Positions 26,075 to 26,918 of a stretch of 64,000 bases of DNA are shown in pieces; the first letter of the stretch is position 1, and every line of letters starts with the position of its first letter. Source of the DNA: Proteromonas lacertae (lineage: Eukaryota); contig NGBS01000292.1 in assembly GCA_002245135.1 (NCBI GenBank), positions 558,001 to 622,000 of the forward strand, written 5' to 3'. The position numbers and the translations under genes were made by a program. The notes beneath the pieces were generated by a model. That model worked only from the letters and a program-made list of their open reading frames with translations. It had not been told where the DNA came from and did no database searches.

Positions 26075-26093
26075 GTAATCAATAGAGCATTAT
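26075..26093 (-). promoter_or_regulatory. RPL10 3' arm (sense ATAATGCTCTAT-TGATTAC), complementary to its 5' arm
   Basis: Plus strand has GTAATCA at 26075-26081 and ATAGAGCATTAT at 26082-26093, 15-33 nt past the stop codon. Confidence 0.6.
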
Positions 26094-26107
26094 CTTCAGT
26101 GTACTGT

Positions 26108-26877
26108 TTAATAACCAAGTGGACCATGATTTCTTAAGTAATAAGCGATATTTCCGGTTGGCTTTATTCTACCTTGTTCGTTTAATTTATTGTATTCTTC
26201 TACTGTGTATTTAGTGAAACCCCATTTCTTTGATACAACAATCTTTTGTTGACCTGGGAACTTCATACTAGCTCTTCTTAAAGCTTCTTCGGCATTTCTT
26301 AAATTGTTATCTTTAACTCTGACTGACATTAAGATTTGTCCAATCTTAACACGAGCAACAGTACCTTGTGGTTTACCGAAGGCATGTCTCATACCGGTTT
26401 GCAATCTATAAAAAGTATTAATTAATTAAATAAAAATACCTATCTGCACCGGCACAACTAAGCATCTTATTGATACGAAGTACGTGGAATGGATGAGCTC
26501 TAATTCTTAAATGGAATGCATCTTTACCTGCACTTTTAACTAAGTATTTGTTGCAGGAAATACGGGCAGCTTCTAAAGCTTCACTTGAGATCTATAATAA
26601 TTTAAATTCACTTTGGAAATACTTGTTCTCTTTCGTTTGATACTAAATGTACGACTTGTGGGAATTCATTTACATCAGCATCTTTTCTACCAATATCAAA
26701 GATACGAATTTTTGGATCTAAAAATAAACACTTTAAAAATACCTGGTACACCTCTACAGAAACGAGATTTAATGTAAGGCTTGTTCTTACAATAACGATA
26801 ACTAGAAAATATAAAAGCCAAGATACCATCTAGCAGGACCTATAAAAATAAATATAATATGTTATACGTCTTCCCAT
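26108..26877 (-). CDS. RPL10: 60S ribosomal protein L10 (uL16), 5 introns
   Basis: Spliced translation [35 protein letters not shown]...[11 protein letters not shown]...[31 protein letters not shown]...FPGQQKI. Confidence 0.98.
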
Positions 26878-26893
26878 TATGCAATAATTTTAT

Positions 26894-26918
26894 ATAATGC
26901 TCTATATGAAATGATCAC
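26894..26918 (-). promoter_or_regulatory. RPL10 5' arm (sense GTGATCA-tttcat-ATAGAGCATTAT)
   Basis: Plus strand has ATAATGCTCTAT at 26894-26905 (exact reverse complement of 26082-26093) and TGATCAC at 26912-26918. Confidence 0.6.

Follow-up and report, generated by a model that had tools for sequence, protein, structure and literature searches.

The window, by which the whole analysed stretch of 64,000 nucleotides is meant, carries two neighboring ribosomal protein (RP) genes on its reverse strand, RPL10 and RPS16 (Table 1). The RPL10 gene model runs from an ATG at 26877 to a stop codon at 26110-26108, is interrupted by introns of 28, 25, 25, 31, and 34 nt, translates cleanly, and was found again by a simple gene finder. 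Spliced contigs from related strains contain the joints of introns 3, 4, and 5 and have the letters of exon 2 between exons 1 and 3. RPS16 is the only other RP gene found in the window with Pfam, which was run on 290 of the 639 stop-to-stop frames of at least 35 aa and could be escaped by a very fragmented third RP gene. The first intron of RPS16 (24365-24483, reverse strand) measures 119 nt compared to the usual 22-45 nt; it has no Rfam match and may contain a small RNA or regulatory element.

Table 1. Features at the RPL10 and RPS16 loci (positions in the window; negative offsets are counted upstream of the ATG, positive offsets downstream of the stop codon).
Feature	Position	Strand	Details
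RPL10 (uL16) CDS	26108..26877	-	6 exons (26868-26877, 26827-26839, 26743-26801, 26623-26717, 26440-26591, 26108-26405); 208 aa; gene model, Pfam, splice joints in contigs
RPL10 helix 1, 5′ arm	26894..26905	-	−28..−17; contains GAGCATT at 26902-26896; spliced-contig cover 26899-26894 only
RPL10 helix 1, 3′ arm	26082..26093	-	+15..+26; covered by spliced contigs X4 (from 26076) and X3 (from 26087)
RPL10 helix 2, 5′ arm	26912..26918	-	−41..−35; may be upstream of transcription start; contig cover none
RPL10 helix 2, 3′ arm	26075..26081	-	+27..+33; at or adjoining the inferred poly(A) site; contig X4 matches to 26076
15-nt 3′ motif TAATGCTCTAWTGAT, RPL10 copy	26078..26092	-	+16..+30
RPS16 (uS9) CDS	23884..24525	-	4 exons (24484-24525, 24166-24364, 24072-24119, 23884-24029); 144 aa; Pfam
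RPS16 5′ arm	24539..24546	-	−21..−14; shared 7-mer; 8 bp (one G-U) with 23856-23849
15-nt 3′ motif, RPS16 copy	23843..23857	-	+27..+41
RPS16 predicted second helix, 5′ half	24550..24554	-	5 bp with 23842-23838; sequence unlike RPL10 helix 2
13-nt element ATTATCGAGCTTA, RPS16 copy	24548..24560	-	−35..−23; likely promoter site
13-nt element, RPL10 copy	27062..27074	-	−197..−185
Best PhRiboBox match in window	26983..26994	+	106-117 nt upstream of RPL10 ATG; score 16.3, top of 23 matches of at least 11

From its sequence, the window is read as part of the genome of a divergent Blastocystis-like (opalinatan) gut protist that is unlike the human subtypes. In a tree of RPL10 proteins (46 of 117 proteins used), its protein groups with Blastocystis with a support of 94/86 and on a long branch. 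The GC content is 21-31% per 2 kb and introns mostly measure 22-45 nt, whereas human-subtype Blastocystis has 39-55% GC and 30-nt introns (PMC12129017), which argues against a human-subtype-like genome. An intronless gene for a B12-dependent (class II) ribonucleotide reductase occupies 1499-3607 on the forward strand; its best named matches are from Blastocystis (65-66% identity), and many prokaryotic proteins are about as close. Two class-3 lipase genes on the forward strand (33335-34570 and 61696-63433), 28 kb apart, are identical over a run of at least 76 nt, which points to a recent duplication. The neighboring forward-strand genes at 33191, 35085, and 37575 have common upstream tracts of 30-40 nt that are the top of 276 pairs, and the genes at 35085 and 37575 start with similar peptides.

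RPL10 is framed by an inverted repeat. As the first-pass annotation had stated, the sense strand of 26905-26894 is the exact reverse complement of that of 26093-26082, and the offsets that it gave for these 12-bp arms, −28 to −17 and +15 to +26, are correct. Its second helix was confirmed as well: 26918-26912 pairs with 26081-26075 with one G-U, and a 6-nt bulge (26911-26906) separates it from the 12-bp helix. Among 5000 dinucleotide shuffles, 2 have a 12-bp match between 50-nt flanks, as have 5 among 5000 GC-matched window pairs, and the duplex energy of −23.3 kcal/mol is reached by 11 and 21 of 5000, respectively. With flanks of 100 nt, 6 of 2000 shuffles and 12 of 2000 GC-matched pairs are as good. 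The chance of such a repeat is ~0.04-0.2% per gene or ~1-4% per window (~24 genes), and the 64 kb hold 45 perfect inverted repeats of at least 12 bp with at least 3 G/C and arms 100-3000 nt apart. Because of this chance rate and the similar repeats, the RPL10 repeat taken alone is suggestive only. By a composition-weighted complementarity score, RPL10 ranks first among 576 comparisons of 5′ and 3′ flanks, and its duplex energy is reached by 1 of 552 cross pairs. The G-U pair had been taken as a hint of selection on the sense RNA, as it would be a mismatch on the other strand. This argument does not discriminate and was discarded, since the same bias toward the sense strand is found in 16 of 22 non-RP genes, whose models come from a simple gene finder with some wrong starts and stops and serve as approximate controls.

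The repeat is raised above chance by RPS16, which replicates the arrangement. The 7-mer GAGCATT lies before the ATG at −20 to −14 in RPS16 and at −25 to −19 in RPL10, and its complement lies after the stop codon at +28 to +34 and +17 to +23, respectively. The complement sits within a 15-nt 3′ motif whose RPL10 and RPS16 copies are identical in 14 of 15 positions. Throughout the 64-kb window, this motif is exact at these two genes only, and the next best match has 2 mismatches. MAFFT aligned the two 3′ flanks in another register (a 9-nt AT-rich match), and the 15-mer thus rests on the motif search and the flank comparison. The 7-mer and its complement occur in 5 copies in 64 kb, compared to a chance expectation of 5.85; the fifth lies in a SAC1 exon, and all 4 non-coding copies are found at the RP flanks, forward on the 5′ side and reverse on the 3′ side of both genes, which is the pairing orientation. 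Among 300,000 shuffles of the RPS16 flanks, 28 place the same arm 7-mer both before and after the gene, and the 22 approximate non-RP controls have no arm 7-mer on either flank. For common sequence, the 3′ flanks of the two RP genes rank first of 276 gene pairs, a level reached in 0 of 3000 shuffles.

A point missed by the first-pass annotation is that its 12-bp repeat consists for the most part of a 10-nt motif found on either side of the gene, to which two neighboring A/T matches are added. RPL10 and RPS16 have the same core, and covariation between the two genes is absent; beyond the core, pairing continues in both genes with different letters. The flanking word is regarded as a real RP-gene element of this divergent Blastocystis-like lineage that rests on two linked genes at a distance of 1.6 kb. 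As it is common to RP genes, an explanation as a DNA site is opened, too.

Evidence on transcription comes from contigs of five runs that were presumed to be RNA; the contigs at RPL10 are spliced, and contigs cannot show where transcripts start or end. They stem from related strains that are ~5% diverged in the RPL10 coding sequence. Contig X4 spans 26076-26107, followed by three extra unaligned letters, and X3 begins at 26087, which shows transcription of the RPL10 3′ arm in these strains. The probable end of the mRNA is inferred to be near +32 to +34, shortly ahead of a GU-rich tract at +39. A rule for the poly(A) site and its downstream element has been described for human-subtype Blastocystis (PMC5608401) and was not found in tortoise isolates (PMC12129017). 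Judged from difference counts, X4 is free of differences from the window in 26076-26086, compared to 13 differences in the last exon. The strain of X3 and X4 would, by the counts in two alignments, have an altered RPL10 stop codon, and three differences fall somewhere in 26087-26107, a span that overlaps 7 nt of the 3′ arm. On the 5′ side, the furthest contig end is that of X1 at 26899 (−22), where the predicted helix does not form; one difference lies somewhere in 26866-26899, again from counts. The 5′ half of RPL10 helix 2 (−41 to −35) is located beyond every contig end and may be promoter DNA. RPS16 has GU-rich elements at +11, upstream of its motif, and at +61; with the former, polyadenylation could take place before the 3′ arm is reached.

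In predicted folds of the full spliced RPL10 mRNA, helix 1 forms with pair probabilities of ~0.9-1.0 for 3′ ends up to +45. With a 3′ end at +60, the probability is 0.65-0.98; when the 3′ flank is lengthened to 100 nt, 3 of 5 folds give only 0.1-0.3. If a poly(A) tail is added, transcripts that start at −25 or before it are predicted to form the helix, and those that start at −22 or −21 lose it. The limit of the first-pass annotation, which saw its helix endangered by starts downstream of 26894, was thus too lax, since the predicted helix is gone once transcription starts at −22. For the spliced RPS16 mRNA, an 8-bp helix is predicted on the same core, whose first five pairs have probabilities of 0.5-1.0 with all 6 end choices; most end choices add a second helix of 4-5 bp that has its own sequence. 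The RPS16 duplex energy is unexceptional (4th of 24, with 21 of 552 cross pairs as low), and the GCP2 flanks reach −22.4 without the motif. The earlier reading of a helix between the 5′ and 3′ ends is thus supported in part, by the predicted fold of the spliced mRNA, the transcribed 3′ arm, and the repetition in RPS16, while the G-U argument falls away.

Related loci delimit the feature. In the comparison with relatives that the first-pass annotation had proposed, the helix is found in 0 of 15 flank pairs of human-type Blastocystis RPL10, whose longest complements are 5-7 nt (z from −1.6 to +0.7). A search for a close RPL10 relative in metagenomes found none among 80 loci (best identity 69%). 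For the duplex test, 48 of these loci were usable; 3 unannotated loci and 29 that were duplicates or were missing a start, a stop, or a flank were left out. The lowest z among the 48 is −2.3 compared to −3.7 for the window, and two AT-rich loci among them contain a perfect 12-nt complement whose energy is at chance level. The RPL10 feature is therefore lineage-restricted across these flanks, and a 12-nt flank match by itself can be trivial. RPS16 was sought in the retrieved RPL10 loci and not found there, and scans of prokaryote genomes and of viruses yielded 4 distant matches and 0 matches, respectively.

The human-type Blastocystis RPL10 loci have features of their own. A local 5-bp hairpin lies just before TGTTTGTT in the 3′ UTRs of seven loci (L013, L014, L016, L018, L020, L021, and L022; e.g., L018:2298-2330). 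All 7 aligned sequences have it; of the changes in it, 5 are one-sided (U-A/U-G) and 0 are double. Related hairpins are found in L006 and L008. In these human-type loci, too, the final bases ahead of the poly(A) site would be engaged in pairing. The word YCACGAT recurs ~50-60 nt before the ATG (L001, L003, L018, and others). Reversed, it resembles the core of the window's 13-nt element as well as 26920-26914, and it is a possible promoter element. Across L003-L010 and L013-L022, identical 5′ flanks are joined to differing 3′ flanks and the reverse, which suggests several gene copies with recombination or conversion.

Other signals of the window were compared with the arms. The 13-nt element has two sites only in the window at up to 2 mismatches and is likely a promoter site judging from its position, which varies (−35 compared to −197). 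No PhRiboBox match of at least 11 is found upstream of RPS16, and a PhRiboBox-related word, CAAGCCA, precedes the genes that start at 8958 and 13046. The arms themselves score −9.0, −6.5, −1.1, and −5.0 with the PhRiboBox matrix and were rejected as copies of it. They are also unrelated to the Blastocystis downstream element TGTTTGTT (~5 nt past the poly(A) site); its exact form has 4 copies only in 64 kb, and degenerate GU-rich tracts are found at +39 of RPL10 and at +11 and +61 of RPS16. A transposon with terminal inverted repeats was dismissed, as the arm ends have no target-site duplication and no other arm copies occur in 64 kb. A 5′TOP mRNA starts with a C at the cap that is followed by a run of pyrimidines; the 5′ arm is no such run. 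No Rfam family, snoRNAs included, matches the window at gathering score.

The best reading, to which about an even chance is given, is an RNA helix of 8-12 bp that would join the two ends of the mRNA and tag RP mRNAs for joint control. GAGCATT and its complement would likely belong to the 5′ and 3′ UTRs of the RPL10 and RPS16 mRNAs and pair the ends of each. The 5′ arm would be inside the mRNA, which would then start at or before about −25. The scanning 43S complex would open the 5′ arm at every initiation round. Ribosome-loaded mRNAs, in turn, keep their ends apart (PMC9981743), and for both reasons the helix would form mainly on ribosome-free, idle mRNA. A protein could then read the helix together with the conserved UAWUGAU extension and store RP mRNAs in a silent, stable form until the cells grow again. 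Base pairing would thereby take over the role that LARP1, which binds both ends, has for TOP mRNAs.

In the main rival to an RNA helix, a factor or initiator-like element would read TAGAGCATTA as a DNA site at the start of RP genes and, inverted, at their end, where it would serve initiation, termination, or gene looping with complementarity as a by-product. Such a site is somewhat unlikely, even though 3 of the 4 copies are the same 10-mer on one strand and the identical, non-covarying core fits it equally well. It would explain why contig X1 begins inside the 5′ word (26899), as if a start site were there, but a contig end cannot show a start, and the 3′ copy lies inside the transcript. The related GAGC-containing 13-mer at −35 and −197 is position-free like a promoter site, and a Phytophthora RP promoter motif is found both up- and downstream of starts (PMC4696810). 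The arms, however, do not match that PhRiboBox (scores from −9.0 to −1.1), the promoters of the window hold no other non-coding copies, and an orientation-free site would yield the observed orientation pattern in 1 of 8 cases.

It is improbable that the arrangement is functionless and goes back to a chance repeat at RPL10 that RPS16 came to share by local duplication or conversion, or to remnants of small inverted-repeat elements. RPL10 and RPS16 are only 1.6 kb apart, the neighbors at 33-37 kb share even longer upstream tracts (the top two of 276 5′ pairs), a 12-bp repeat is expected in ~1-4% of such windows, and human-type Blastocystis lacks the helix. Against this stand a shuffle rate of ~1e-4 and the common pieces themselves, which are short, not collinear (the 13-mer lies at −35 and −197), and confined to two RP genes; neither a target-site duplication nor other arm copies were seen in 64 kb. 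Likewise improbable are two independent single-stranded signals, a protein-binding or processing motif in the 3′ UTR and a core-promoter word on the 5′ side, with a 7-nt complementarity that is incidental or slightly selected. The 3′ motif is indeed conserved over 15 nt, beyond the need of the 8-bp RPS16 helix, and mRNA ends are close anyway (PMC6193969); unrelated motifs would nevertheless need an exact 7-nt complementarity with 3 G/C, which in RPL10 extends to 12. The RNA helix is preferred because the arms adjoin the CDS and lie outside it, because their complementary orientation is fixed, and because pairing beyond the core is gene-specific.

A wider form of the RNA helix reading is that the lineage marks its whole set of RP mRNAs with one complementary word pair and that each mRNA loops by base pairing, which is held tentatively and with some doubt. 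If true, it would be an RNA-only counterpart of TOP/LARP1, with one sequence that both assigns an mRNA to the regulon and bridges its ends. Two questions are concerned, whether mRNA ends must touch and how RP mRNAs are jointly controlled in organisms other than animals, plants, and yeast. Both would become directly testable, with built-in replicates, in naturally occurring short mRNAs that have one end-to-end helix in common. Even as a DNA site, the word would be an RP-gene motif at both gene ends in a lineage with almost unknown gene-control signals.

Among known systems, the helix between the 5′ and 3′ UTRs of p53 mRNA (PMC10158990) is likewise a long-range complementary pairing of UTRs in a eukaryotic mRNA that is tied to translation control, with a 5′-side bulge of 8 nt compared to 6 nt in RPL10. 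It concerns one gene and was addressed by compensatory mutations, whereas the word described here is common to genes of one class and was derived from sequence and prediction. The pairing of the S. aureus icaR UTRs and viral cyclisation (PMC3868564, PMC12168079) similarly use complementary ends to control translation or replication, but in single bacterial or viral RNAs instead of a eukaryotic gene class. The ends of mRNAs are in general predicted to be close, as they are here (PMC6193969, PMC11609591); this proximity is sequence-unspecific, in contrast to a specific word that recurs in two genes.

The second line of likeness is control of the RP class. In the Phytophthora PhRiboBox (PMC4696810), a short RP-gene motif likewise lies near the start codon in a stramenopile, and a strong match is found at −106 of RPL10. 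It was described from promoter sequences and occurs in either orientation, whereas the arms are unlike its matrix and have a fixed complementary 3′ partner. Paired complementary RP-gene motifs were not found described in the literature searched, mostly at the level of titles and abstracts, and the available part of a review of RP gene regulation (PMC8047918) holds nothing similar. The 5′TOP/LARP1 system (PMC7927982) is also a common tag on RP mRNAs, and the La-module of LARP1 engages both mRNA ends. There, a protein bridges the cap-adjacent pyrimidine tract and the poly(A), whereas here the words are complementary and contain purines, and a bridge made of RNA is proposed. The RPL10/RPS16 element would combine a p53-like anatomy with a TOP/LARP1-like purpose.
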